Shown piece by piece: positions 16,041 to 39,032 of a stretch of 39,032 bases of DNA. Source of the stretch: a virus (Duplodnaviria > Heunggongvirae > Uroviricota > Caudoviricetes); IMG/VR virus record IMGVR_UViG_649989948_000008, positions 1-39,032 of that record; one strand, written 5' to 3'. How positions within the stretch are numbered: position 1 is the stretch's first letter; each line of letters begins with the position of its first letter. The notes under the pieces are model-generated. The model was not told the DNA's origin, searched no databases, and worked only from the letters and a program-made list of their open reading frames with translations. A program made the translations under genes and the position numbers.

Positions 16041-18404
16041 TCAAATATCGAAGCTCGTTATGTCGGCATTTATTGCCATTGCTTCGGCATAAGTGCGACG
16101 CTCACCATCAGCACAAAGTAGGCGTGCTGCTTTATGGATTTTTCTCGTAGAACCATCATCCAGTGACACTGTCACCCAGCCTTCCTCCGCTCGCTTAATG
16201 AAGTCGCCGCCAATGGATTTCATTTTCTCCATATCTTTTTTCCCGATCGCTTTCCTGACCGAGTCTGCTTCCGCCATTGAGAACCCCGCCAAGATTCGCG
16301 TAGCAGCCATGATCTGTTCCTGATAAATCAGAACTCCGTTTGTGTCGCGAGAGATGTCGTCCAGCATTGGGTGTAAGGAATGTGGGGCCATGAAGCCTTT
16401 GGCCACGGACACATAATCGTCCAACATGCCGGATTGAATCGGGCCAGGTCGGAAGAGCGCAGTTGTAGCGACGACCGTTTTAAAGCTCATTGGCTCAATT
16501 CCACCACCTAAATCTTTAAGCAGCTTGCGCATTGGGCCTGATTCAAGCTGGAATACGCCCTGTGTATACCCTGCAGCAAAACCATCCAGCACCTTGCGAT
16601 CTTCAAGAGAAATGGCATCAAGATTGATATCTTCACCTGTGTTCTCTTTTATGTAGCGTTTTGCACTATCGAGCAAATCGAGAGTTGCCAGGCCAAGCAC
16701 GTCCAGCTTAATTAGGCCCATAGCCTCGCAGTAACGCTTGTCAAATGCGATACAACGCGCGTCACCACGGCGTTCAACCGGTGTACGTTCTGTCAGAGGA
16801 ACACCTGCTACGATCATCCCTGCCGCATGTCTACCAAAGCCACGCATAAGGCTTTGTAACTTGCAGGCTGCATTGAATGCATCAGGATATTTTGTTGCGT
16901 ATTTGTCGAGACTTGCCAGTTGTTCGCGCAGCTCTTCCAATGGAAGGCTATCATCCTCGACGTTCTTCAGTTCTTTTGATACCGCCATATCTGCGGACTC
17001 CACACCATAAATACGAGCGGTGTCACGTAGTGCAGAGGCTGCGCCCAGGTAGGTGAAGTTCGGAATGCCTGCAACGTAATCTTCGCCGTAGCGTTCATTC
17101 AGATACTCGATCACCTCATGGCGACGTGCCTGGCTGAAGTCCAAGTCCGCATCCGGCAAGTCGAGACGCTCAGGGTTGATGAAACGCTCAAACAGAAGAC
17201 CGTGACGGATTGGGTCGACGTTGGTTATGCCTATGCACCACGCCACCAGAGAACCGGCAGAGGAACCACGACCAGGCCCAACGGGAATGCCAGTTTCACG
17301 ACTATGATTCATCAGATCGCGCACCATCAGGAAGTAACCACAGAATCCCAGGCGAGTCAGCGTGTCCATTTCGTACTTTAGCCGCTCAACATAAACCCTG
17401 TTCTCAGAAGCAGGTGGTGTGTAGCCAAACTCTTTTGTGGTAAGACGTTTACGCAGCCCTGCAACAGCCAGTTTCATAAGCGTTGCAGGCTCGTCGTCTG
17501 CCATCTTGGGCAGTGCTGGTGGCAATTCATGCCAGCGCCATGTGCAGGCATCGATAATGGAGTCCTGCGTTGTTGAGGCCATTGCAGCTGTTACTGGCAC
17601 ATCCATGCGAACGGAGAAGGCTTTAAGCGCCTCAAGGAGATGGCGACGACCATTGATGGCGTTATCTCGCTGGTGGGGGATACGCAGACGATGCGGCTGG
17701 TCGATTTTTATGTTGTTCGTAACCATGTGCGCAATGTCTTTAATGTCAGCATCGTCGATCGATTCGTAATAAGCGGGATAGAACGCTACTGGCTCTATTT
17801 TCAGTGCGCTGGCGACTTTCATCGCCCGGACGTTAATCTGGTCGTAGAATGGGGTAGGGTGCGGATAGACCACACTATAGAAGTTGTCTTTTCCACCCGC
17901 TGTAATCAGTGTGCTTATGATTTTTGCAAAATCGTTGCGTTGGAACACGCTACCGATGTCGGAAGTAAGCAGGATGATGTTGCCTTTGGCATATGTAGAA
18001 ACCAACTGTTCGAGCGAGAGACGCGGTACAAAGTAGAACTGTTCTCGTGTGTTGGCCACCGTCATTAGTTCGCAGATGTCGCGATATCCTTGCTCATTTT
18101 TAATTAGAGCGGTAAACGAGTAGTTACGTCCCCGCTCTAATGATTCCATACATCTCATAGATTCTTTAGCAAGTTTAGCCCGGTGCTCGTATGTGGGATC
18201 ATCAACAATGTTTAGTTTCACACCACAAATAACCGCCATGTCGTCACCAGCGGCACGTTGTAGTGGAATAACGCTCGCAATATTCATGCTATCTGCTGAA
18301 ATTACAGCGGTGTAGCCAGCTTCTCTGGCAATCTTCACCGCGTTTTCTGCTTTTAGAGCCGACTCCCCAAGTGAGAAGTCAGTTCGAACCATCAGTGCCT
18401 TCAT
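16041..18404 (-). CDS. dnaE: DNA polymerase III alpha-like (DnaE), N-terminal fragment (PHP and polymerase core)
   Basis: GRGSSAGSLVAWCIGITNVDPIRHGLLFERFINPERLDLPDADLDF and RHAAGMIVAG match the Pol III alpha core; ends just after RKAIGKKDMEKMKSIGGDFIKRAEEG. Confidence 0.8.
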   Translation of the reverse strand: MKALMVRTDFSLGESALKAENAVKIAREAGYTAVISADSMNIASVIPLQRAAGDDMAVICGVKLNIVDDPTYEHRAKLAKESMRCMESLERGRNYSFTALIKNEQGYRDICELMTVANTREQFYFVPRLSLEQLVSTYAKGNIILLTSDIGSVFQRNDFAKIISTLITAGGKDNFYSVVYPHPTPFYDQINVRAMKVASALKIEPVAFYPAYYESIDDADIKDIAHMVTNNIKIDQPHRLRIPHQRDNAINGRRHLLEALKAFSVRMDVPVTAAMASTTQDSIIDACTWRWHELPPALPKMADDEPATLMKLAVAGLRKRLTTKEFGYTPPASENRVYVERLKYEMDTLTRLGFCGYFLMVRDLMNHSRETGIPVGPGRGSSAGSLVAWCIGITNVDPIRHGLLFERFINPERLDLPDADLDFSQARRHEVIEYLNERYGEDYVAGIPNFTYLGAASALRDTARIYGVESADMAVSKELKNVEDDSLPLEELREQLASLDKYATKYPDAFNAACKLQSLMRGFGRHAAGMIVAGVPLTERTPVERRGDARCIAFDKRYCEAMGLIKLDVLGLATLDLLDSAKRYIKENTGEDINLDAISLEDRKVLDGFAAGYTQGVFQLESGPMRKLLKDLGGGIEPMSFKTVVATTALFRPGPIQSGMLDDYVSVAKGFMAPHSLHPMLDDISRDTNGVLIYQEQIMAATRILAGFSMAEADSVRKAIGKKDMEKMKSIGGDFIKRAEEGWVTVSLDDGSTRKIHKAARLLCADGERRTYAEAMAINADITSFDI

Positions 18405-27771: not shown

Positions 27772-28062
27772 TTATTCGGTTGTGACTTTTTTGATCAAGG
27801 CCACTCTACGACTAGGTGTTCTTGTAATGGTGGCAGTGAATCGTTTCGCTTGGATAGTAATGGTTTCGTTCTCCTTAAGTTGCCCGTAGCGAGTTTCCAC
27901 TAGGGTGCCAAGACGCCACAGACCATCATCGATACGTTTATGACTAGCAAATTTAATCAGCAACAGTTTTACGACTAACTGACCTACGTAAAAGGCGAAT
28001 GCGACTCCGGCCGCTAAGAAATAGGTGGCCAACCACCATTCCCAAGAAGTTAAATTGCTCAT
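27772..28062 (-). CDS. hypothetical membrane protein (96 aa, N-terminal transmembrane helix)
   Basis: WWLATYFLAAGVAFAFYVGQLVV hydrophobic segment; start overlaps the stop of the upstream small ORF. Confidence 0.45.
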   Translation of the reverse strand: MSNLTSWEWWLATYFLAAGVAFAFYVGQLVVKLLLIKFASHKRIDDGLWRLGTLVETRYGQLKENETITIQAKRFTATITRTPSRRVALIKKVTTE

Positions 28063-28211
28063 TTTTTCACCTTTATTTCATGAACTACCCGATACACACG
28101 CTTTCCGATGCACAGTGTTTTGGTTTTAAGTTCCTGCTTAATTAAATCACGACAGATGCCGAAGCCGATAAGGAAGCCACCCATAAAAGCTAATGAGATG
28201 TATGGAATCAT
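28059..28211 (-). CDS. small membrane protein (50 aa, below track cutoff)
   Basis: Hand-translated MIPYISLAFMGGFLIGFGICRDL...; ATGA overlaps at both ends; the start codon lies inside the repeated TGTATGGAATCAT motif. Confidence 0.35.
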   Translation of the reverse strand: MIPYISLAFMGGFLIGFGICRDLIKQELKTKTLCIGKRVYRVVHEIKVKK

Positions 28212-28423
28212 TTTAACACTCCTGATTCTACTAATTGCTGTAGCAATACTTTCCCTTTATCAGTTAACTGGTAGTTGGCCGAACACCACGTTTCAGAAAC
28301 GTTTGCAACCAACCCTAAACGCTCTAACTTAGCTCGCGTTTTAGGCTTCCAGTACTCAGGGAACTCCGGCCACTTACTGATTTCATGAAGCGTTTCCTTC
28401 TCCCGTTTACTTAATACGATCAT
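28208..28423 (-). CDS. hypothetical small protein (71 aa)
   Basis: Charged helical ORF with ATG start, translationally coupled to the downstream ORF. Confidence 0.4.
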   Translation of the reverse strand: MIVLSKREKETLHEISKWPEFPEYWKPKTRAKLERLGLVANVSETWCSANYQLTDKGKVLLQQLVESGVLK

Positions 28424-28586
28424 CCTTAATCTCCTTCAGGGTGTTGGTTATTTCTACAATGCGATAAATACGACCGCGTCTTTCTATAACACCGCTTTTA
28501 ATGTAGTCATTGATGCAACTGGACATCACCACAATACCTATGAAAAAACCAACTGCTAAAAATGCAATCATCCAGCCGAGCATCAT
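28407..28586 (-). CDS. small membrane protein (59 aa, below track cutoff)
   Basis: Hand-translated MMLGWMIAFLAVGFFIGIVVMSSC...; its ATG overlaps the ligase stop (ATGA). Confidence 0.35.
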   Translation of the reverse strand: MMLGWMIAFLAVGFFIGIVVMSSCINDYIKSGVIERRGRIYRIVEITNTLKEIKDDRIK

Positions 28587-29905
28587 TCTTTATCTCCGAT
28601 TCGATCTTCTGTATCGCGTAAGCAACGCGGCCATTTCAGTCGTGGGTGGCGTAAGCTGCCGTCCGGTGTTTTCTCGTGACAATGAACCTCGACAATACGA
28701 CCACGGTACTTCTCTTTGTTGTTCCAGATCTCATCCAGATATTTATGCTTAATGCCGCTCGCACGAACGATGACGCCGTTTTCAAGACGAATAACAATTT
28801 TTCCAAGTGTGTTGGCAAAACCAGAGTCCGGGTCGCCCGGCTCAAAGTCGATAATTTCACCATCTTCTGAATCTTCGTCTTTTAACTTCCACCAGCTGCG
28901 GGTACGTTTAAACTCGTAAACAGAGTTCGGATCTTTGCCCATCTCCCCTTCTTCGTTATCGTCCAGGCGTTTCATGAAGCGTTCGATGAAGTCTTCGTGG
29001 CTATGGATGATATAGAACGGATGCAGGTGAATGTCTTGTGTGTAGCCTTCACTGCGATCGTTTTTGAACAACGCCACCAGCATAGCCAGGCGCTCTTTCA
29101 GCTTCATACCTGTCTTTGCATACTCTTTGGATTTAGCCTGTGCTCGCCATTCCGGTAGGAAGAAGTCGAAAACATGATAAATAGCGCCAATTGCCTGCAC
29201 GTTCTTTTTGCGCAATGCAGATACGGACTGGTTAAATGAACCGGCAGTTCCTTCACCATCGAAGAAGATGTGTTTGTGGCCTGAAAGTTTGCCTAATTCG
29301 AGCATTGCTGGCTTTAGGTGATCGAGAGACGTGATTGGATTACCAGTACGAGAAAGGAAGTTAACCTCTTCCTCGTCAACAATAACCTCGCAAATTACTC
29401 GCAAACCATCGAGCTTAAGACTGCCAATCATCGGCCATTTTGCTTTAGGATTTGGCTTGAAGGGGTATTTGTCGCCTTTTTCTTTATACGGTGACGCCAG
29501 CTGCACCTCGAATTTCGGAATGGGATTTTCAAAAACCTTGTTGCATAGGCTAATCCCAACACCTGCTTTCGGGTCTTTTAAGAGGAAACGACGGAACACG
29601 TCCTGCCCATCGGCGCACATTGACGCCACGATAGACTCAACAGCTGCTATTGCTGCGTTCCCCGTTAGCTCGCGAGAGGCCAGCTTATTCAGTACATCAA
29701 TGGCTTTTTCGTCACTTGGGATGGACTCACTAAGCGGCTCTGCCACTTTGTATTTCTTTACCCCAAAACGGATGAAAGGGTTGAGCATCAATGAAACCAT
29801 GCTTTGCTCGAAGTCATCCATGTTGGCCAATGCCTCTTTTTTTGCATTGGTTCCCATAGCTTTCATTTCGTCCAGCTTATGCTTAAGTGCGATCAACTTT
29901 TTCAT
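28583..29905 (-). CDS. ATP-dependent DNA ligase
   Basis: Nucleotidyltransferase motif I KLDGLR, motif III FFDGEGT, motif IV EGEMGK, motif V WWKLK, then an OB-fold-sized C-terminus. Confidence 0.7.
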   Translation of the reverse strand: MKKLIALKHKLDEMKAMGTNAKKEALANMDDFEQSMVSLMLNPFIRFGVKKYKVAEPLSESIPSDEKAIDVLNKLASRELTGNAAIAAVESIVASMCADGQDVFRRFLLKDPKAGVGISLCNKVFENPIPKFEVQLASPYKEKGDKYPFKPNPKAKWPMIGSLKLDGLRVICEVIVDEEEVNFLSRTGNPITSLDHLKPAMLELGKLSGHKHIFFDGEGTAGSFNQSVSALRKKNVQAIGAIYHVFDFFLPEWRAQAKSKEYAKTGMKLKERLAMLVALFKNDRSEGYTQDIHLHPFYIIHSHEDFIERFMKRLDDNEEGEMGKDPNSVYEFKRTRSWWKLKDEDSEDGEIIDFEPGDPDSGFANTLGKIVIRLENGVIVRASGIKHKYLDEIWNNKEKYRGRIVEVHCHEKTPDGSLRHPRLKWPRCLRDTEDRIGDKE

Positions 29906-30384
29906 TGTTGTTTTACCTCCATATGTTGATCGATTTGCTCATGTGTTTCTTTTGTTGTTTCTTCAAGCAACGCCGCATACACGTCAGTGATCGCTGTTTG
30001 TGATGTGGTGCTCTTCTTAACCATGCTATTAATCGTTACACTGTCACGTTTTCGTTTTAAAGTTCTGGCTTGTTTATTCCGTTCTTCAACCTCCTTAATG
30101 AGCACGGTCATATCTTCGAAATACAGAGATTCTCCTTTACGAATCTCTTCAACCATCATTTTTAACGCCTTGCATTTGCCTGCTTTGATAGCGGTTGCGC
30201 ACGACTGGAATGAAGTTCGAGGAAGACGGTTTTCTTTGAAGGCAAGAATGGTGTGCTGGCAAACGGAGTAGCTGCAATATGCCGACTCACCGTTTATCTT
30301 TACTTCCTCACAACGAAGTGAATAACCATTATTTCCTGAAATAGAGGGGATTTTTGACAAATCAGCTTTCACAACTACCGCCAT
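29902..30384 (-). CDS. hypothetical protein (160 aa)
   Basis: ATG start; stop overlaps the ligase start (ATGA). Confidence 0.45.
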   Translation of the reverse strand: MAVVVKADLSKIPSISGNNGYSLRCEEVKINGESAYCSYSVCQHTILAFKENRLPRTSFQSCATAIKAGKCKALKMMVEEIRKGESLYFEDMTVLIKEVEERNKQARTLKRKRDSVTINSMVKKSTTSQTAITDVYAALLEETTKETHEQIDQHMEVKQQ

Positions 30385-30439
30385 AAATAATCTTGTACTT
30401 ACCTATCGTTATTTGCGTAAAAAACGACGCGCGGAGAGA

Positions 30440-31216
30440 TTACCAACTTCCCCAGCTAATCATCTTGCGCTGATTGCTTTCTAAGCGATAGGGGGCAAGA
30501 AGCTCTGTGATATGATTGGTGGCGTATGATTTAGCCTCTTGCTCTATCATCGGTAATTCGTTAGCAATCCTGACCACCTTCCAAGCAAATTCCGCCATTA
30601 CGCCATCACATGCCTTCCCAGCATCAATAACGATATGCACCAGATCCAACTGGCTTTTGCACATGTCGCAAAGAGACGCATACTCACTCTCTCTGATTAC
30701 ATTTACGGCATCATTAGCCCCTTTATTAAGCAAGACTTCCAACAGATTTTTCGGGGTAACGAAATCTGCTTTCAGAGATAATGTCTTTTCACCACTTATC
30801 GAACGCAAGTACTCTTCGTAGTTATTCTTCATCAAACCGCTGCTGCGCATTGCTAGAACTGCTTCTTGAATGGCCGCTTCAATAGTTTCGTCGTTTGAAA
30901 GACAAAAAACGGTATTTGTGTAGATCACTCTGCCATCAAGCCATGCTCCAACCTGCACTTTAAGACTGAGCGGGTTTTCTTTGCTAATAAAAACAACTAA
31001 TGCAGAACGTCGTGCACAAGAAGGTTCACCCCATACGTGTAACTTAACCTTCAGATAAGGTAGCCCCGGTAGCGGGATCTCGACCAAACGAGTGGCGATA
31101 TGATCCATTGCTGTTTTTACCGCTTTTTCAATGATGTCTAGTCGATTGCTCTCGCTGATTTCTAAACCAGTTTTATCAATGATGTCGCAGGCTAATTTCT
31201 GAATTTCGTCTTTCAT
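30440..31216 (-). CDS. hypothetical protein (258 aa)
   Basis: ATG start preceded by an ATAAGTA-n6-TACTTAT palindrome. Confidence 0.5.
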   Translation of the reverse strand: MKDEIQKLACDIIDKTGLEISESNRLDIIEKAVKTAMDHIATRLVEIPLPGLPYLKVKLHVWGEPSCARRSALVVFISKENPLSLKVQVGAWLDGRVIYTNTVFCLSNDETIEAAIQEAVLAMRSSGLMKNNYEEYLRSISGEKTLSLKADFVTPKNLLEVLLNKGANDAVNVIRESEYASLCDMCKSQLDLVHIVIDAGKACDGVMAEFAWKVVRIANELPMIEQEAKSYATNHITELLAPYRLESNQRKMISWGSW

Positions 31217-31291
31217 ACCAACTCCTAGCTAACAGATGAAAGTATTCTCACAGAAAGATAAGTAATCGTCTACTTATTTTAAAGGTGATTG

Positions 31292-32473
31292 TTATGATAG
31301 AGCCTTAATGCCCAAAACCTTGCTTTGCAACTCCAACTGTTTGGTATACGGTTTTGCCCGATAATAGGCTTTGATAATTTGTTCTGGCGTTGCACCGCCC
31401 GGGTCGAGTCCTTCCTCACCCAAACACGCAACTTTGACATTAAGACCGATACTGGTCAGTCGCCTGGCTGCGGCCATCGTGTTGCGTATAGCTTGCTTTT
31501 CACTATCCCACATCATGATCACATTACGTAATCCACGCGCCTTGAGCGTCAGGAACGCGCCTAACTGATCTTCTGCATCCTGAGTGGTGTTACCAGATAG
31601 ATGCATCCCGAACGTTCCTATTGGTTCCACGTAATCACGTAATGTTTCTTCGTCAAAAATAGCTCGTTTAACCCCCATAACATCGAACGCCCCCTCACAG
31701 ACAACTACAGTCTGTTTGCCGACTGCATTATGGCCGTTGTAGAGAAACTTACCTGAAGCTGGAAGTTGCATAGGAAAGAGGTAGCGGCGTTCTGCTGTAC
31801 CGGTAATGTCTCGTCCCTGAAATGTCTTCATTACCCCATCCAGATCGTAAACCGGTATCAGTATTCGCATATCGAATATCTGTCCTTTAACCTGATCTGT
31901 ATACGGATCTACATAGGCGTGCTTGCCTTCGACGCAGTATCGTAGGTCAAAATACTTTGCCATTTCAGGCGATATGTTTCGTTCAACCAGATAGTCTGGA
32001 AGACGGCCATCTATAGGAAGCTCGTAATGACGAGGGAGTGCAACTGGCTCCTCTAACTCGACTGTGCTTGCAAGCACTAGCTCTTCTTTCTTTGGTGCCC
32101 ACCCCTGGGAAAGAAGGGCGTTCTGCACATATTCCTCGAACTGTCGTCGTGATTTGCCGCTGTAGTGCTTGAGGAAGACCAGCTTATTGAACTGAATCTC
32201 TTCGGGATGATCACCAGCGAAGCATTTACCGACGCCACTGGTCAGATTGAAATATACCTTCCAGTTGGAGCTGCCGCATACCGGACACTCCTTGATATTC
32301 ACTTCACGACCGCGAGTACTCACGCCTCCACGTCGATAAACGATACCTTCAGTATCCAACCATTGTTCAAAATCTAATTCGGTAATTAGCTCTTTCAGCT
32401 CGCTCACGATAATTCCACTTTTAACAGGCAATATTGTGACCAACCTAAATGTTGATATAACATAAAGGCTCAT
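31292..32473 (-). CDS. DNA primase (zinc-ribbon plus TOPRIM)
   Basis: Zinc ribbon CPVCGSSNWKVYFNLTSGVGKCFAGDH and TOPRIM acidic motif VVVCEGAFDVMGV. Start placed at the ATG at 32473, which has the conserved start context (track ORF begins at 32545). Confidence 0.65.
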   Translation of the reverse strand: MSLYVISTFRLVTILPVKSGIIVSELKELITELDFEQWLDTEGIVYRRGGVSTRGREVNIKECPVCGSSNWKVYFNLTSGVGKCFAGDHPEEIQFNKLVFLKHYSGKSRRQFEEYVQNALLSQGWAPKKEELVLASTVELEEPVALPRHYELPIDGRLPDYLVERNISPEMAKYFDLRYCVEGKHAYVDPYTDQVKGQIFDMRILIPVYDLDGVMKTFQGRDITGTAERRYLFPMQLPASGKFLYNGHNAVGKQTVVVCEGAFDVMGVKRAIFDEETLRDYVEPIGTFGMHLSGNTTQDAEDQLGAFLTLKARGLRNVIMMWDSEKQAIRNTMAAARRLTSIGLNVKVACLGEEGLDPGGATPEQIIKAYYRAKPYTKQLELQSKVLGIKALS

Positions 32474-32554
32474 GTGTTTTTCTTTTGTGGTTTGGCAAAA
32501 GAAAAGTTGTTTCACCAATGAATCAAGCGTGGAGGTGTTCTCCACGCTTATTTT

Positions 32555-33895
32555 TTAGGTAACGTCTAAGATTCGCTCAATGAAGCGCATTTGTTCGAGG
32601 TTTTGTTTAACGCGAATGCTGATCCCTCCCTGCTGGTTACGTGAACCGGCAAAGTAGAGACGAGCCTCTCCTTTCGCTTCTTCTTCTTCGGTTTTGTTGA
32701 TCGTTATTACCAGGTCAGCAATACGTACTTTTTCGATGTTGTCGGCAGCGTGCATCATTGTGGCAACTTCTGACGCGCCACCTTCACGGTTTGTCTGCGA
32801 TGCCGTGATCCCAGCAACGTTATGCTTGTCATAAAGAGCACGTAAATCGGTGTAGATACTACGAATGTTGGCGCGATCATCACGAAGGTCATAACTGGCA
32901 CGCATCAAATCTGCGTAGTCGACAACAACCATGTCAGGTACCATGCCGTTGGCTTTCATGCTGTTAAGCATACGGTCCAGATCTGCCGGTGACATACTTC
33001 CTGACGGACGCTCAACCACCCACAAACTACCAATCCCCTTCGTGGCTCCCAACTCTGCCAACTTACGATGAACCTCATCGCGCCGTTCCACCAGCTTGGA
33101 CATTTCTGTCTCCGACAATCTTGCATCAAAACGGTCGGATAAAATGGTGGTGTGAACCTCCAGCGAGAGATACAGAACATTGTAGCCAGCAAGCGTTGCG
33201 TTTATGGAAAACTCACCCATTGCGGTCGATTTACCGGATTTAGCGAACCCCATGAAGAGCACCATTTCGCGCTTTGCCCAGCCTTTTTGGTACAGCAACC
33301 TATCGAGAAGAGGGAGTCCAGTTGTAATACTGTTTGGTACATACTCCTCTGAAGCCTCATATTCACGCGCTTTCAATCGCTCACTTGCGGAGGTGTAGTA
33401 GTCATAGATTCCGGTCGCTTCGTTCGATCCAATCTGCTGAACCCTGGCCATGATTGCCATCGCCCCCTGAAAGTCGCCTTTCTCTTTCAGTTCAGCAGCC
33501 TTAATCAGAGCATCATCAAACGCTACACTTTTTGCGAAGGTTGATACCTGGTCAACCATGTACGAGGTATCGGACAATTTTTCTGCAAGAATGCGCTTAA
33601 ACGCAGCAACAACATCGGCGAATAGTTCCTCACGGATAGTCTTATCGCGTTTCGCACGCTTAAGCATATCCAGAATTGCAGATGAAGAGGGCGCGCTCTT
33701 GTACATACGGTAATAGCCCGAAACCATATTAACCAATATGGCATTGGCCGCATTGGCAAACTGGCTAGGCACAACCAGATCTCCCGCACGAGTAAGAAAC
33801 TCGTGATCACGACAAAAATATGCCGTCAGTCTGTTCTGGAAATCTTCATCAAACTCTTCGGACAGCCCGCGTCCTGTATGGCAAAGTTCGGTCAT
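32555..33895 (-). CDS. dnaB: DnaB-family replicative helicase
   Basis: Walker A GFAKSGKST, Walker B VVVDYADLM, and ITASQTNREG resembling the DnaB SQLNR motif. Confidence 0.75.
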   Translation of the reverse strand: MTELCHTGRGLSEEFDEDFQNRLTAYFCRDHEFLTRAGDLVVPSQFANAANAILVNMVSGYYRMYKSAPSSSAILDMLKRAKRDKTIREELFADVVAAFKRILAEKLSDTSYMVDQVSTFAKSVAFDDALIKAAELKEKGDFQGAMAIMARVQQIGSNEATGIYDYYTSASERLKAREYEASEEYVPNSITTGLPLLDRLLYQKGWAKREMVLFMGFAKSGKSTAMGEFSINATLAGYNVLYLSLEVHTTILSDRFDARLSETEMSKLVERRDEVHRKLAELGATKGIGSLWVVERPSGSMSPADLDRMLNSMKANGMVPDMVVVDYADLMRASYDLRDDRANIRSIYTDLRALYDKHNVAGITASQTNREGGASEVATMMHAADNIEKVRIADLVITINKTEEEEAKGEARLYFAGSRNQQGGISIRVKQNLEQMRFIERILDVT

Positions 33896-33938
33896 GTGCT
33901 TTCCTTTGTTTTTTAAACAAATTGTTTTCTAGTGTTAG

Positions 33939-34679
33939 TTAATTAGATAGGGGATCAATAAACCGCCGTGCTTCTTCCAGTTCTTCTGGAAAGTGGGCGG
34001 AAATAAGGCGCTCTGGAACGATTTCCATTAGCCAGATAGCGGAGAAAATTGCGCGTATGCGCTTGCTGCGAGGGATGGTGCGCAAACGCTCCAGAATCCA
34101 CTCAAAATAGCTTTCCTGAATCGGGTTGAACTGCATGTCTCCCATATGCTTAAAGCTAACCAGAGAGTCATCCAGACGGGTTGTTGCGCGTCTGGCTAAT
34201 TTCTCTTCAAATATCTCAATCAGTTCTGGCTGCCACAAATGCTGTGGGCGCGGCAGCTTGTTCCACAGCCGTCGTGCAGCTGCGGAAAGAACGGTGGAGA
34301 TAAAGTAGTCGTATGAGCAGCAATAGCGATCCGCAAACTGGCGTGCTTTCCATAGCGACGTTTTATTGGCAGTCGACAACTCCTGATAAGGCAGGCGTTT
34401 TAACCCGGTGGTGAACGGAGCTGTTTCAAAGTGTTCGCGACCGTGCGTCAGCATGATATTTGAGTACTGACGTTTGTATGCCTCCGTAAAAAGACAGGTG
34501 GCCATGAGAGGATGCATGTCGCGGTAATCAAACCACTTCGTCTCGAAGAGTTCAGCCTCGTCTTTACAGCGCGACAAACCAATGTTTTCAGCGACCCACT
34601 TGTCCATAACAGCGGTATTCCACTCTGTCATGAAGTCGTACTGGTCGTTGTCGATGGTATCGAAAAAGATTTGGCTCAT
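33939..34679 (-). CDS. hypothetical protein upstream of the helicase (possible helicase-associated factor)
   Basis: ATG at 34679 with AGGTGA RBS (track ORF starts at a GTG at 34688); no motif recognised. Confidence 0.45.
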   Translation of the reverse strand: MSQIFFDTIDNDQYDFMTEWNTAVMDKWVAENIGLSRCKDEAELFETKWFDYRDMHPLMATCLFTEAYKRQYSNIMLTHGREHFETAPFTTGLKRLPYQELSTANKTSLWKARQFADRYCCSYDYFISTVLSAAARRLWNKLPRPQHLWQPELIEIFEEKLARRATTRLDDSLVSFKHMGDMQFNPIQESYFEWILERLRTIPRSKRIRAIFSAIWLMEIVPERLISAHFPEELEEARRFIDPLSN

Positions 34680-34961
34680 GTGGCTCACCTGGTAGGTAGT
34701 TACTTACTTATCACAATGAGCGGATGATAGCGACTGGTGGCAGTTTTTGGAAGTGGAAACGGAAGGGAGTTGTTCTGGTGGTGTCTTTTAAAAGACCTGC
34801 TTCCGTATATATTTAATAAGTTACTTATTATTTATATATACAGAAGCAGGCATAACTTGTCGTCTTAGACGCCCAGAAGCTCTACACTTTGAGCCTGTTA
34901 AATTGATTAAAAACTTATGTGTAAAATAGAACGCATTAGTCAGTAGCAAAGAGATGCAATA

Positions 34962-35729
34962 ATGGACGATTTATCGGTATACGCGAGATCATTGGATAAG
35001 GCTAAATACTATGTTTACTGTCTCTATGATACAGAAGACAAGATGAAAAGACCGTTTTACATAGGAAAAGGCAAATCGACTCGTTGTCTCGATCACATCA
35101 AGTATCCCGATGACTCTCCCAAATCCATGCGGATCAAAGAACTTTTGGCTAATAAAAAATTAGGCATAGATATACTTCGTCATGGTATGGATGAAACCAC
35201 AGCCAAACTTGTTGAGGCGACATGCATCGACCTTATGGGGGTCGGAGAGCTTACGAATAAGGTACGAGGAAGTGGTTCCATGATGGGCAGAATATCACTA
35301 GACGCCTACCATCACTTAGTGCTGCAAGAGGAAACTGAAATTGCTCCTGAGCACGCCGGTCTTGCCTTCCTGCTAAACAGCACCTACAAGTCAGGAATGT
35401 CCGCTCTGGCATTATATGAAGCTACGCGTGGCGTATGGGCAAAGGTTCCAAGAGACGAGAATCTCAAATATGCCTACGCTACATATGGTGGGCTGATAAT
35501 GGAAGTTTATCAGATTGAATGCTGGGTCAAAGCCGGCTCTCAGCAGTACTTTACAAGGGATATAGCTCTTGGCCCCGACACAAAACGTTATGAATTTGTT
35601 GGCAGAATAGCCGATGAGCATATTAGAAAACTGTATGTAGGCAAATTAATCAAGAAGCCACCAAGCTACGGTAGCCCTTTTGTGAAGGTTGGGGTGGTTA
35701 GGACTGAACATAGTGTTAGCGCGGCATAA
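34962..35729 (+). CDS. GIY-YIG nuclease-domain protein with uncharacterised C-terminal domain
   Basis: YYVYCLYD ... PFYIGKGKSTRCLDH (GIY and YIG elements, Arg), later LVEATCID (Glu) and LTNKVRG (Asn); one of the few plus-strand genes. Confidence 0.6.
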   Translation: MDDLSVYARSLDKAKYYVYCLYDTEDKMKRPFYIGKGKSTRCLDHIKYPDDSPKSMRIKELLANKKLGIDILRHGMDETTAKLVEATCIDLMGVGELTNKVRGSGSMMGRISLDAYHHLVLQEETEIAPEHAGLAFLLNSTYKSGMSALALYEATRGVWAKVPRDENLKYAYATYGGLIMEVYQIECWVKAGSQQYFTRDIALGPDTKRYEFVGRIADEHIRKLYVGKLIKKPPSYGSPFVKVGVVRTEHSVSAA

Positions 35730-38283: not shown

Positions 38284-38514
38284 TTATGGTACTTTTCTGC
38301 CCCATCCACACAATCGCTCCCCTATCATATTGTGAAAAAGCACCTCTCTTTCAGTCTCTTCTGTCATGAGATCATCACGGCTGATGTATAGCGGTGTAGC
38401 CGCATCGCAGAAAAGCACACCAGCGGGTTGAGGCTTAATCACGCAACCACTTATTGTGCAACTCATGATGAACAGTAGAAGCATCCTTGCTCCGTAACTC
38501 ATCAAGTGTTTCAT
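38284..38514 (-). CDS. small lipoprotein, possible o-spanin (Rz1-like)
   Basis: Lipobox ISGC after a hydrophobic leader; gene begins inside the 3' end of the upstream membrane protein gene in another frame. Confidence 0.35.
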   Translation of the reverse strand: MKHLMSYGARMLLLFIMSCTISGCVIKPQPAGVLFCDAATPLYISRDDLMTEETEREVLFHNMIGERLCGWGRKVP

Positions 38515-38686
38515 TTTTGACGTCCAATGTGCTTTGAAGTCGTTTCCTGTCTTCCTGTTTTGCCTTCTCTTCTATTGCTCGTCGCGCCGCATTTCCGCCC
38601 ATCGTGTAAGCGCCGACCAGAACGAAAAGAACGGCAGCCAGCGTAATCAAAGCAACTTTTAGCTTTGTCATCAGGCTGCCTAGCAT
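38435..38686 (-). CDS. single-pass membrane protein with charged helical tail, possible i-spanin (Rz-like) or holin-type protein
   Basis: N-terminal TM (KLKVALITLAAVLFVLVGAY) followed by EEKAKQEDRKRLQSTLDVKNETLDELR; overlaps the lipoprotein gene by 80 bp. Confidence 0.35.
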   Translation of the reverse strand: MLGSLMTKLKVALITLAAVLFVLVGAYTMGGNAARRAIEEKAKQEDRKRLQSTLDVKNETLDELRSKDASTVHHELHNKWLRD

Positions 38687-38687
38687 A

Positions 38688-39032
38688 TTAGACCATCCCT
38701 TTCTGGTGTTTTCTTACCTGCGACCAGGCAATGAATCCTGCCACAACAATAGTGGCAATACCGAAGATGATGCGTACTGTATCCCCGCTAGAGATATGAC
38801 CTTGTGCTTTATCCATAGCAGCGGAAACCTGCGGCATAACATCGGCCAGCTGCGCCAGACCAATACCTGCTGTAACAGTTGCGCCTGCAGTTTCTTTAGT
38901 TACAGGAACAGCCTTCACGGTTTTCACCGGCTTAACAACGCCAGCTCGACGCAGACCTTCCTCAATAACTTCTGCCGCATACCAGGTGTTCAGCGTTTTT
39001 AGCGGGCCTCGACCATTCTCGTGGCGAATGAT
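38688..39032 (-). CDS. lysis-associated protein with C-terminal transmembrane helix, partial (5' end beyond window)
   Basis: The reading frame stays open to the window edge upstream of the GTG that the track uses as start; C-terminal hydrophobic helix IIFGIATIVVAGFIAW; directly upstream of the spanin-like pair. Confidence 0.3.
   Translation of the reverse strand: MIRHENGRGPLKTLNTWYAAEVIEEGLRRAGVVKPVKTVKAVPVTKETAGATVTAGIGLAQLADVMPQVSAAMDKAQGHISSGDTVRIIFGIATIVVAGFIAWSQVRKHQKGMV

Follow-up and report, generated by a model that had tools for sequence, protein, structure and literature searches.

We investigated four small coupled open reading frames (ORFs), here called orf59, orf71, orf50 and orf96 after the lengths of their products in amino acids (aa), which follow a DNA ligase gene in a stretch of 39,032 nucleotides (nt) from a Caudoviricetes virus (IMG/VR record IMGVR_UViG_649989948_000008, positions 1 to 39,032; hereafter the window). 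All four are present in the ORF list on the minus strand, orf59 at 28407..28586, orf71 at 28208..28423, orf50 at 28059..28211 and orf96 at 27772..28062. The ligase gene overlaps orf59 by 4 nt in an ATGA junction, orf59 and orf71 overlap by 17 nt, and orf71/orf50 and orf50/orf96 are again joined by 4-nt ATGA junctions. Shine-Dalgarno-like (SD) sites precede the starts of orf59, orf71, orf50 and orf96 by 6-8 nt and read, in this order, GGAG, AAGGAG, AGGAG and AAGGTG. The coordinates, overlaps and SD-like sites thus bear out the first-pass annotation of this DNA, which had described four coupled small ORFs downstream of the ligase. It had further assigned a single hydrophobic helix to three of the four products, and the hydropathy check agrees: the best Kyte-Doolittle values over 17 residues are 2.59 for orf59, 1.88 for orf50 and 2.15 for orf96, against 0.43 for orf71. 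The family-mean profiles give the same picture as the window proteins: orf71 is the only one of the four that lacks a transmembrane segment, and the other three have one each.

Each ORF was matched end to end by a PHROG family (phrog_4381 for orf59, phrog_4054 for orf71, phrog_6302 for orf50 and phrog_4507 for orf96) with E-values of 1e-35 to 1e-58, and all four families are labelled "unknown function". We then retrieved eleven relatives and compared them codon by codon with the window. In 9-10 of these relatives, at 60-79% aa identity, the four frames retain their ATG starts, SD sites and stop/start overlaps, and those with intact frames include SSU5, pHCM2 and Yersinia pestis pMT1 as well as Klebsiella, Enterobacter and Cronobacter representatives. 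Across the cassette, nonsynonymous divergence (pN, 0.11-0.30) lies well below synonymous divergence (pS, 0.39-0.88, often saturated), which corresponds to nonsynonymous-to-synonymous rate ratios (dN/dS) of about 0.05-0.3. Hence the lack of conservation in relatives that the first-pass annotation had named as speaking against these genes did not appear. The intact frames, the excess of pS over pN and the full-length PHROG matches exclude chance ORFs, and by this comparison the four ORFs are genuine genes under purifying selection. They are also already catalogued as "hypothetical" genes: the same genes are annotated in SSU5 (SSU5_045-048), pHCM2 and pMT1, where the gene order after the ligase is identical, and in Cyrano (CYRAN_37-39), and they do not differ from the members of PHROGs 4381, 4054, 6302 and 4507. 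What is new here is the paralogy of two of the genes, the division into core and accessory members, the winged-helix model of orf71 and the predicted membrane topology; the first-pass annotation had seen neither the fold, nor the paralogy of orf59 and orf50, nor that orf50 and orf96 are the only conserved core.

The ligase itself (28583..29905, minus strand, 440 aa) is of the ATP-dependent type (PF01068, E 5.8e-13; phrog_114, E 8e-126), and its homologues in Cyrano and SSU5 carry a DNA ligase annotation. Over about 1.2 kb around the cassette, the identity is 98% with Escherichia phage Cyrano (pLF82) and with CMS-2020a records, and 78% with Salmonella phage SSU5. Furthermore, the cassette DNA matches 759 PLSDB plasmids, nearly all of them non-mobilisable, from Klebsiella, Escherichia, Enterobacter, Salmonella (pHCM2), Yersinia pestis (pMT1), Citrobacter and Cronobacter. 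Judged from these matches, the window is part of an SSU5-type phage-plasmid. Such elements are common in clinical Enterobacteriaceae (E. coli, Klebsiella, S. Typhi with pHCM2, Y. pestis with pMT1), and most of their genes are uncharacterised. The cassette closes a minus-strand operon, which in the Cyrano annotation comprises helicase, primase, two unknown genes and ligase. A consensus scan of positions 26300-35000 found 0 sigma-70-type promoter-like sites in these 8.7 kb, compared with 12.6 +/- 3.9 in shuffled sequences; this shortage within the replication operon suggests either selection against internal promoters or the use of non-canonical ones.

The three membrane proteins share a simple bitopic build. 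In orf59, a transmembrane segment at about residues 3-22 is followed by a basic tail with RRGRIYRIV; in orf50, the segment lies at about residues 2-20, and the tail, with a net charge of about +6, contains IGKRVYRVVHE. The largest of the three, orf96, begins with a short acidic N-terminus and a transmembrane segment (about residues 11-37); a long helix and a beta-hairpin (ITIQAKRFTATITR) come next, and the tail is again basic. The dN/dS values are 0.06-0.16 for orf59, 0.17-0.5 for orf50 and 0.05-0.12 for orf96. None of the three families has a lysine or arginine before the transmembrane segment, and the net charges of their C-terminal tails are +1.5, +6.1 and +5.6. By the positive-inside rule, orf59, orf50 and orf96 are therefore predicted to be oriented N-out/C-in, which places their conserved basic hairpins on the cytoplasmic side. 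We also considered orf59 as a lipoprotein because of its VMSSC sequence, and rejected this assignment, as the N-terminus lacks positive charge and the cysteine is not invariant.

None of orf59, orf50 and orf96 showed homology or a fold match to any characterised protein. Word-indexed protein searches with all four proteins returned SSU5-type relatives only, as did an exhaustive profile search with orf96, and scans of the four against Pfam, NCBIfam and PADLOC gave nothing above noise except for weak winged helix-turn-helix (wHTH) signals in orf71. The AlphaFold2 model of orf96, of low confidence (predicted local distance difference test (pLDDT) 65), contains a helix at 6-60 and a hairpin at 67-80; a Foldseek search with this model against the PDB yielded no meaningful match, and a PDB sequence-profile search with orf96 returned nothing significant. 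The orf96 family is tiny, with 42 clusters at 90% identity and only 18 of 1.84 billion representatives at 50% identity. Its distant full-length members P0149, P0151 and P0152 keep the architecture, and for P0149 no locus was found in viral or genome contigs. The RefSeq name "C-type natriuretic protein" has been propagated to orf96 homologues of 96-101 aa in many plasmid records. This name was unsupported by every search, and in the literature no paper was found that combines 'C-type natriuretic protein' with 'plasmid'.

The remaining protein, orf71, is soluble (71 aa; pN 0.20-0.30 versus a saturated pS of 0.74-0.88). Its AlphaFold2 model (pLDDT 77) has the topology helix-helix-beta-beta-helix, and the top Foldseek matches of this model in the PDB are all wHTH domains, mainly of the MarR family, with template modelling scores of 0.65-0.74 and probabilities up to 1.0, at E-values of at least 0.025. 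In BFVD, the model resembles many uncharacterised phage proteins of 60-75 aa. The corresponding signals at the sequence level are weak (HTH_45, E 0.18; SSO5209, E 0.013; the C-terminal part of Csa3, E 0.0015; PDB profiles, E of at least 0.39). We thus describe orf71 as a predicted minimal winged-helix protein of the DNA-binding type, as modelled. The model superposes on the wHTH core of MarR-type proteins and resembles the stand-alone mini winged-helix proteins of phages; it differs from MarR in that the 71-aa protein lacks dimerisation helices and the sequence matches are insignificant.

To relate the membrane proteins to one another, we aligned their families. The proteins orf59 and orf50 align over their full length (BLASTP E 1e-4; hhalign probability 75-80%, E about 1e-5, with 1.3e-5 at 80%) and have the same build of transmembrane helix, linker and G-[KR]-R-[IV]-Y-R-[IV]-V hairpin. 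On these alignments, orf59 and orf50 are paralogues, orf59 being a diverged duplicate. Paralogy of all three membrane proteins was also considered and given up, since no relation appeared when orf96 was compared by hhalign with the families of orf50 and orf59, even though the hairpin motifs of the three look similar by eye.

Two distant SSU5-type contigs, L013 and L017, whose ligase is 74% identical, contain a simpler form of the cassette. There, the ligase is joined by an overlapping stop/start (ATGA) to a 56-aa membrane protein, which shares 52% identity with orf50 (E 1e-14) and 27% with orf59 (E 5e-5). An orf96-like protein of the same architecture comes next (31-33% identity to orf96), and orf59 and orf71 are absent. 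Among 21 IMG/VR loci with a full ligase and sufficient downstream room, an orf50-like and an orf96-like gene were each found in 21/21, orf71 in 16/21 and orf59 in 13-14/21. Natural variants follow the same line: Klebsiella L010 has lost the ligase, orf59 and orf71 and retains orf50 and orf96; in the Klebsiella plasmid L011, the orf50 tail and the entire orf96 have been swapped together; in Y. pestis pMT1, IS100 has removed the ligase and all four small genes are retained. From the constant presence in the surveyed loci, the arrangement in L013 and L017 and these variants, the comparison identifies the orf50/orf96 pair as the conserved unit and the ligase, an orf50-like and an orf96-like gene as the universal core. 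By the same comparison, orf59 and orf71 are lineage-specific additions of the Escherichia/Salmonella/Klebsiella branch, with orf71 as an insertion between two orf50-type copies. The pSLy3-type E. coli plasmids lack exactly orf59, and orf71 there joins the ligase by ATGA. The ligase/orf59 junction (28583-28600, GGAGATAAAGAATGAT) and the orf59/orf71 junction (28420-28436, GGAGATTAAGGATGAT) form near-identical 16-nt direct repeats, and recombination between them would yield the exact 163-bp orf59 deletion of these plasmids.

As for the time of action, RNA sequencing (RNA-seq) of the LF82 lysogen gave 5-7.5 normalised counts for CYRAN_36-39, as low as the values of the silent terminase and capsid genes (PMC9928086, S1 table), compared with 150-590 normalised counts for lysogeny-expressed genes in the same data (PMC9928086); CYRAN_37-39 are likewise not in the 'moron' list of that study (PMC9928086). 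The cassette is silent in lysogeny. From this background signal in the Cyrano lysogen, we infer lytic timing and, with it, a lytic-cycle function.

Taken by itself, the cassette is an ordinary set of small phage ORFans. To account for it as a whole, we tentatively propose, with a confidence that stays well short of even, that its products make up a cytoplasm-facing membrane complex in the lytic phase, which acts on phage DNA or on the replication/ligation machinery. The ligase junction, the operon setting, the core pair, the basic tails, the wHTH fold of orf71 and the silence in lysogeny are the grounds for such a replication-linked membrane complex. As the 3'-terminal part of the replication operon described above, the cassette would be produced by translational coupling to the ligase. 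The orf50 and orf96 proteins would be a single-pass inner-membrane pair in the N-out/C-in orientation, with their basic, beta-hairpin-containing tails in the cytoplasm, and may associate in one small membrane complex. A diverged orf50 copy (orf59) and a minimal winged helix (orf71) would have been added between the ligase and the core pair in the Escherichia/Salmonella/Klebsiella branch. The module would then work at the cytoplasmic face of the membrane in lytic growth, where it would tether or organise, and would serve neither lysis nor lysogenic conversion. What we infer in this scheme is the topology in the membrane, the assembly into a heteromeric complex and the replication link, and the specific tether mechanism is its least secure part. 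The cassette is open to experiments for three reasons: its conservation as a lytic-phase module, its two-gene membrane core and its separation from lysis.

A comparable arrangement exists in phage phi29, whose early membrane proteins p16.7 and p1 organise membrane-associated DNA replication. Like these, the present products would be small proteins encoded with replication genes, with an N-terminal transmembrane anchor and a cytoplasmic part, which in phi29 binds DNA or the replication machinery, and with a timing that is presumed here. They differ from p16.7 and p1 in several ways: neither sequence nor fold was found to be similar, orf50 and orf96 lack any detectable DNA-binding domain, and the host is Gram-negative; the analogy is thus architectural and positional only. 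Several points weigh against the proposed membrane complex. The topology follows from the positive-inside rule only, and the orf96 model is of low confidence (pLDDT 65). As orf59, orf50 and orf96 match no characterised protein, the tether idea draws only on position, charge and the neighbouring wHTH protein, and phage gene order reflects timing more than function. Finally, the module persists without the ligase in pMT1 (IS100) and in Klebsiella L010, which rules out a strict need for the ligase and weakens the link to replication.

We therefore weighed other explanations against the same data. The first-pass annotation had offered holin-like proteins, exclusion proteins or small toxins, and one rival reading takes the membrane proteins as effectors of host takeover that act in lytic growth by depolarising the membrane or by blocking division or envelope synthesis (toxin, Kil-type or single-gene lysis-like proteins). 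Their small size, single transmembrane segment and strongly charged tails would suit such a role, silence in lysogeny fits something harmful to the host, and the four are clade-restricted ORFans, as accessory host-interaction genes typically are. At about 50 aa, with one transmembrane helix followed by a charged tail, they recall Hok/Gef. However, no Hok/Gef (PF01848), holin or other toxin family matched even at E-values up to 1, and there is no antisense-RNA or antitoxin arrangement, the cassette being translationally linked to its neighbours in a long operon and not an independent, antisense-RNA-controlled locus. Stable carriage in hundreds of plasmids, some apparently defective, also argues against high toxicity if expression leaks. 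We thus regard host-takeover effectors as unlikely; a small toxin, as first suggested, is possible and drew no positive support, since Pfam, NCBIfam and PADLOC returned nothing significant. Proteins for superinfection exclusion or anti-defence at the membrane in the lytic cycle, comparable to T4 Imm and Sp, which are likewise small membrane proteins made early in infection, appear less probable still, and we consider them a poor prospect. Small early membrane proteins often serve as exclusion factors, and the presence of orf59 and orf71 varies by lineage, as is usual for arms-race genes. Nevertheless, there is no homology to Imm or Sp, the predicted periplasmic parts comprise 1-17 residues only and the tails are predicted to be cytoplasmic. 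PADLOC gave no hits for the three membrane proteins and only a weak Csa3/CARF-type wHTH for orf71, and selection is strongly purifying, with no sign of diversification. The silence of CYRAN_36-39 in the lysogen also disfavours the form of exclusion that is expressed in lysogens; the part of the earlier suggestion that survives is a lytic-phase form, for which nothing positive was found.

Components of lysis, i.e. a holin, an antiholin or a lysis-timing protein, are very unlikely in our estimate. The cassette membrane proteins do resemble holins and antiholins such as lambda S, T4 T/RI and P1 LydA/LydB in that they are small, with at least one transmembrane segment and a charged C-terminal tail, but these features are generic and not diagnostic. 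Endolysin (partial, 38688-39032), Rz (38435..38686) and Rz1 (38284..38514) lie about 10 kb from the cassette in the window, and in Cyrano an annotated holin precedes or adjoins endolysin, Rz and Rz1. The holin role once proposed for the cassette is thus disfavoured because a separate lysis cassette exists. In addition, the four genes sit in the replication operon and not beside the endolysin, Pfam and PHROGs contain no holin family that matches the cassette proteins, and the predicted cytoplasmic tails leave almost no periplasmic domain. Chance ORFs or decaying remnants without function can practically be set aside. Two of the ORFs are shorter than 60 aa, one or more of the genes are lost in some plasmids, and the Cronobacter orf96 is truncated to 66 aa; against this, dN/dS is well below 1 at saturated synonymous sites, the starts, SD sites and overlaps are kept, the PHROG matches are full length, and orf50-like and orf96-like genes occur in 21/21 loci.

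We also found that the start of orf50 carries a motif of its own. The 12-mer ATGATTCCATAC (28200..28211, minus strand), which covers codons 1-4 of orf50 (MIPY), occurs in five exact copies in the window, versus 0.26 expected, at 18140 and 24170 on the plus strand and at 24189, 27188 and 28200 on the minus strand; the five places are the same in Cyrano. The single copies extend to 15 nt, at 18140-18154 (plus), 27185-27199 (minus) and 28197-28211 (minus). The 15 nt with which orf50 starts, ATGATTCCATACATC, do not differ in any relative, and codons 2-5 of orf50 show zero synonymous changes in relatives found by protein similarity, in agreement with a tally of relatives selected by regular expression. 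An identical non-coding 15-nt copy lies about 1 kb downstream (27185-27199) in all relatives, where a short ORF that starts there is unconserved; in all relatives, one single copy spans the start codon of orf50 and another the 3' end of a structured RNA. By this pattern, the 12-mer at the beginning of orf50 is coding sequence that doubles as a DNA or RNA motif. The two direct copies were also considered as borders of an exchangeable cassette, and this was rejected, as the end points of the replacement in Klebsiella L011 do not coincide with them.

The structured RNA of about 600 nt (27185-27800, minus strand) lies directly downstream of orf96, in a 780-nt 'intergenic' stretch between orf96 and tRNA-Asn that is more conserved than the flanking genes. 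The minus-strand fold has a z-score of -7.05. The consensus structure has 121 pairs, with 98.4% of cells paired compared with 30-46% in slid controls; 13 pairs show compensatory changes, many G-U pairs are kept, and 0/500 shuffles reach the observed values. Near the 5' end of the RNA lies a tag frame, GCA AAC GAA GAA GTC TAT CTG GCA GTA GCC TAA TAA (27679 to 27644), which encodes ANEEVYLAVA followed by two stop codons; the ssrA tag of E. coli is ANDENYALAA. The relatives have ANEDTYLAVA, ANEDAYLAVA, ANEDSYLAVA, ANDNQYLAVA and ANDTQYLAVA, with synonymous third-position changes (TAT/TAC, GCC/GCT/GCG, GAC/GAT, ACG/ACA) and no frameshifts. The Rfam models of transfer-messenger RNA (tmRNA) match the tag region only, below threshold. 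Neither ARAGORN, also at relaxed thresholds, nor Rfam found a tRNA-like domain, comparison with E. coli ssrA showed no nucleotide similarity beyond GCAAACGA, and in the literature we found no paper that links tmRNA with SSU5, pHCM2 or pMT1. With its tmRNA-like tag frame, the RNA is a candidate for an atypical tmRNA, which would bear on translation handling by these plasmids.

In L017, the RNA module lies 2.4 kb from the orf96-like gene and still ends with the 12-mer; judged by this separation, the RNA module is independent of the cassette. At its 3' end, orf96 contains TGATCAAA (27790-27797, codons LIKK), which is also kept about 35 nt upstream of the RNA in L013 and L017, where the RNA is not beside orf96. 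This retention suggests that the end of orf96 probably overlaps the 5' control region of the RNA.

The remaining two copies of the 12-mer form the palindrome AATGATTCCATAC-ATAGTAG-GTATGGAATCATT (24169-24201, both strands) with a 7-bp spacer, whose centre lies 115 nt upstream of the start of the integrase gene (22967..24070). The palindrome was found in at least 100 IMG/VR contigs, and 97/100 have an integrase homologue (59-100% identity) that starts 59-117 nt from its centre. The 7-bp spacer varies between lineages; the arms were fixed by the search pattern. Such a pattern is typical of the core site of a tyrosine recombinase (lox/dif-like) and also compatible with an operator. A lox-like site by the integrase gene would bear on how SSU5-type plasmids are maintained, and this site and the RNA could matter more than the cassette. 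One may extend the proposed membrane complex further: the orf50 and orf96 proteins would tether replicating or nick-sealing DNA, the ligase or the replisome to the membrane, with their output set by the 12-nt motif at the orf50 start, and the membrane module, the tmRNA-like RNA and the recombinase would then share one regulatory circuit. This extended form is speculative, and we hold it to be decidedly improbable.

Between the tRNA cluster and the integrase palindrome, positions 24200-26993 are a variable cargo region by comparison with Cyrano (L001) and SSU5 (L002). In the window, it holds four tRNAs (Asn, Tyr, Thr, Ser), a 193-aa ORF (25584..26165), whose N-terminus appears lipoprotein-like by eye only (LTGC), and a 270-aa ORF (24764..25576). 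The SSU5 counterpart consists of tRNA-Asn alone, directly followed by cobalamin genes and with no integrase there, and that of Cyrano holds three tRNAs, glutaredoxin and CYRAN_43.

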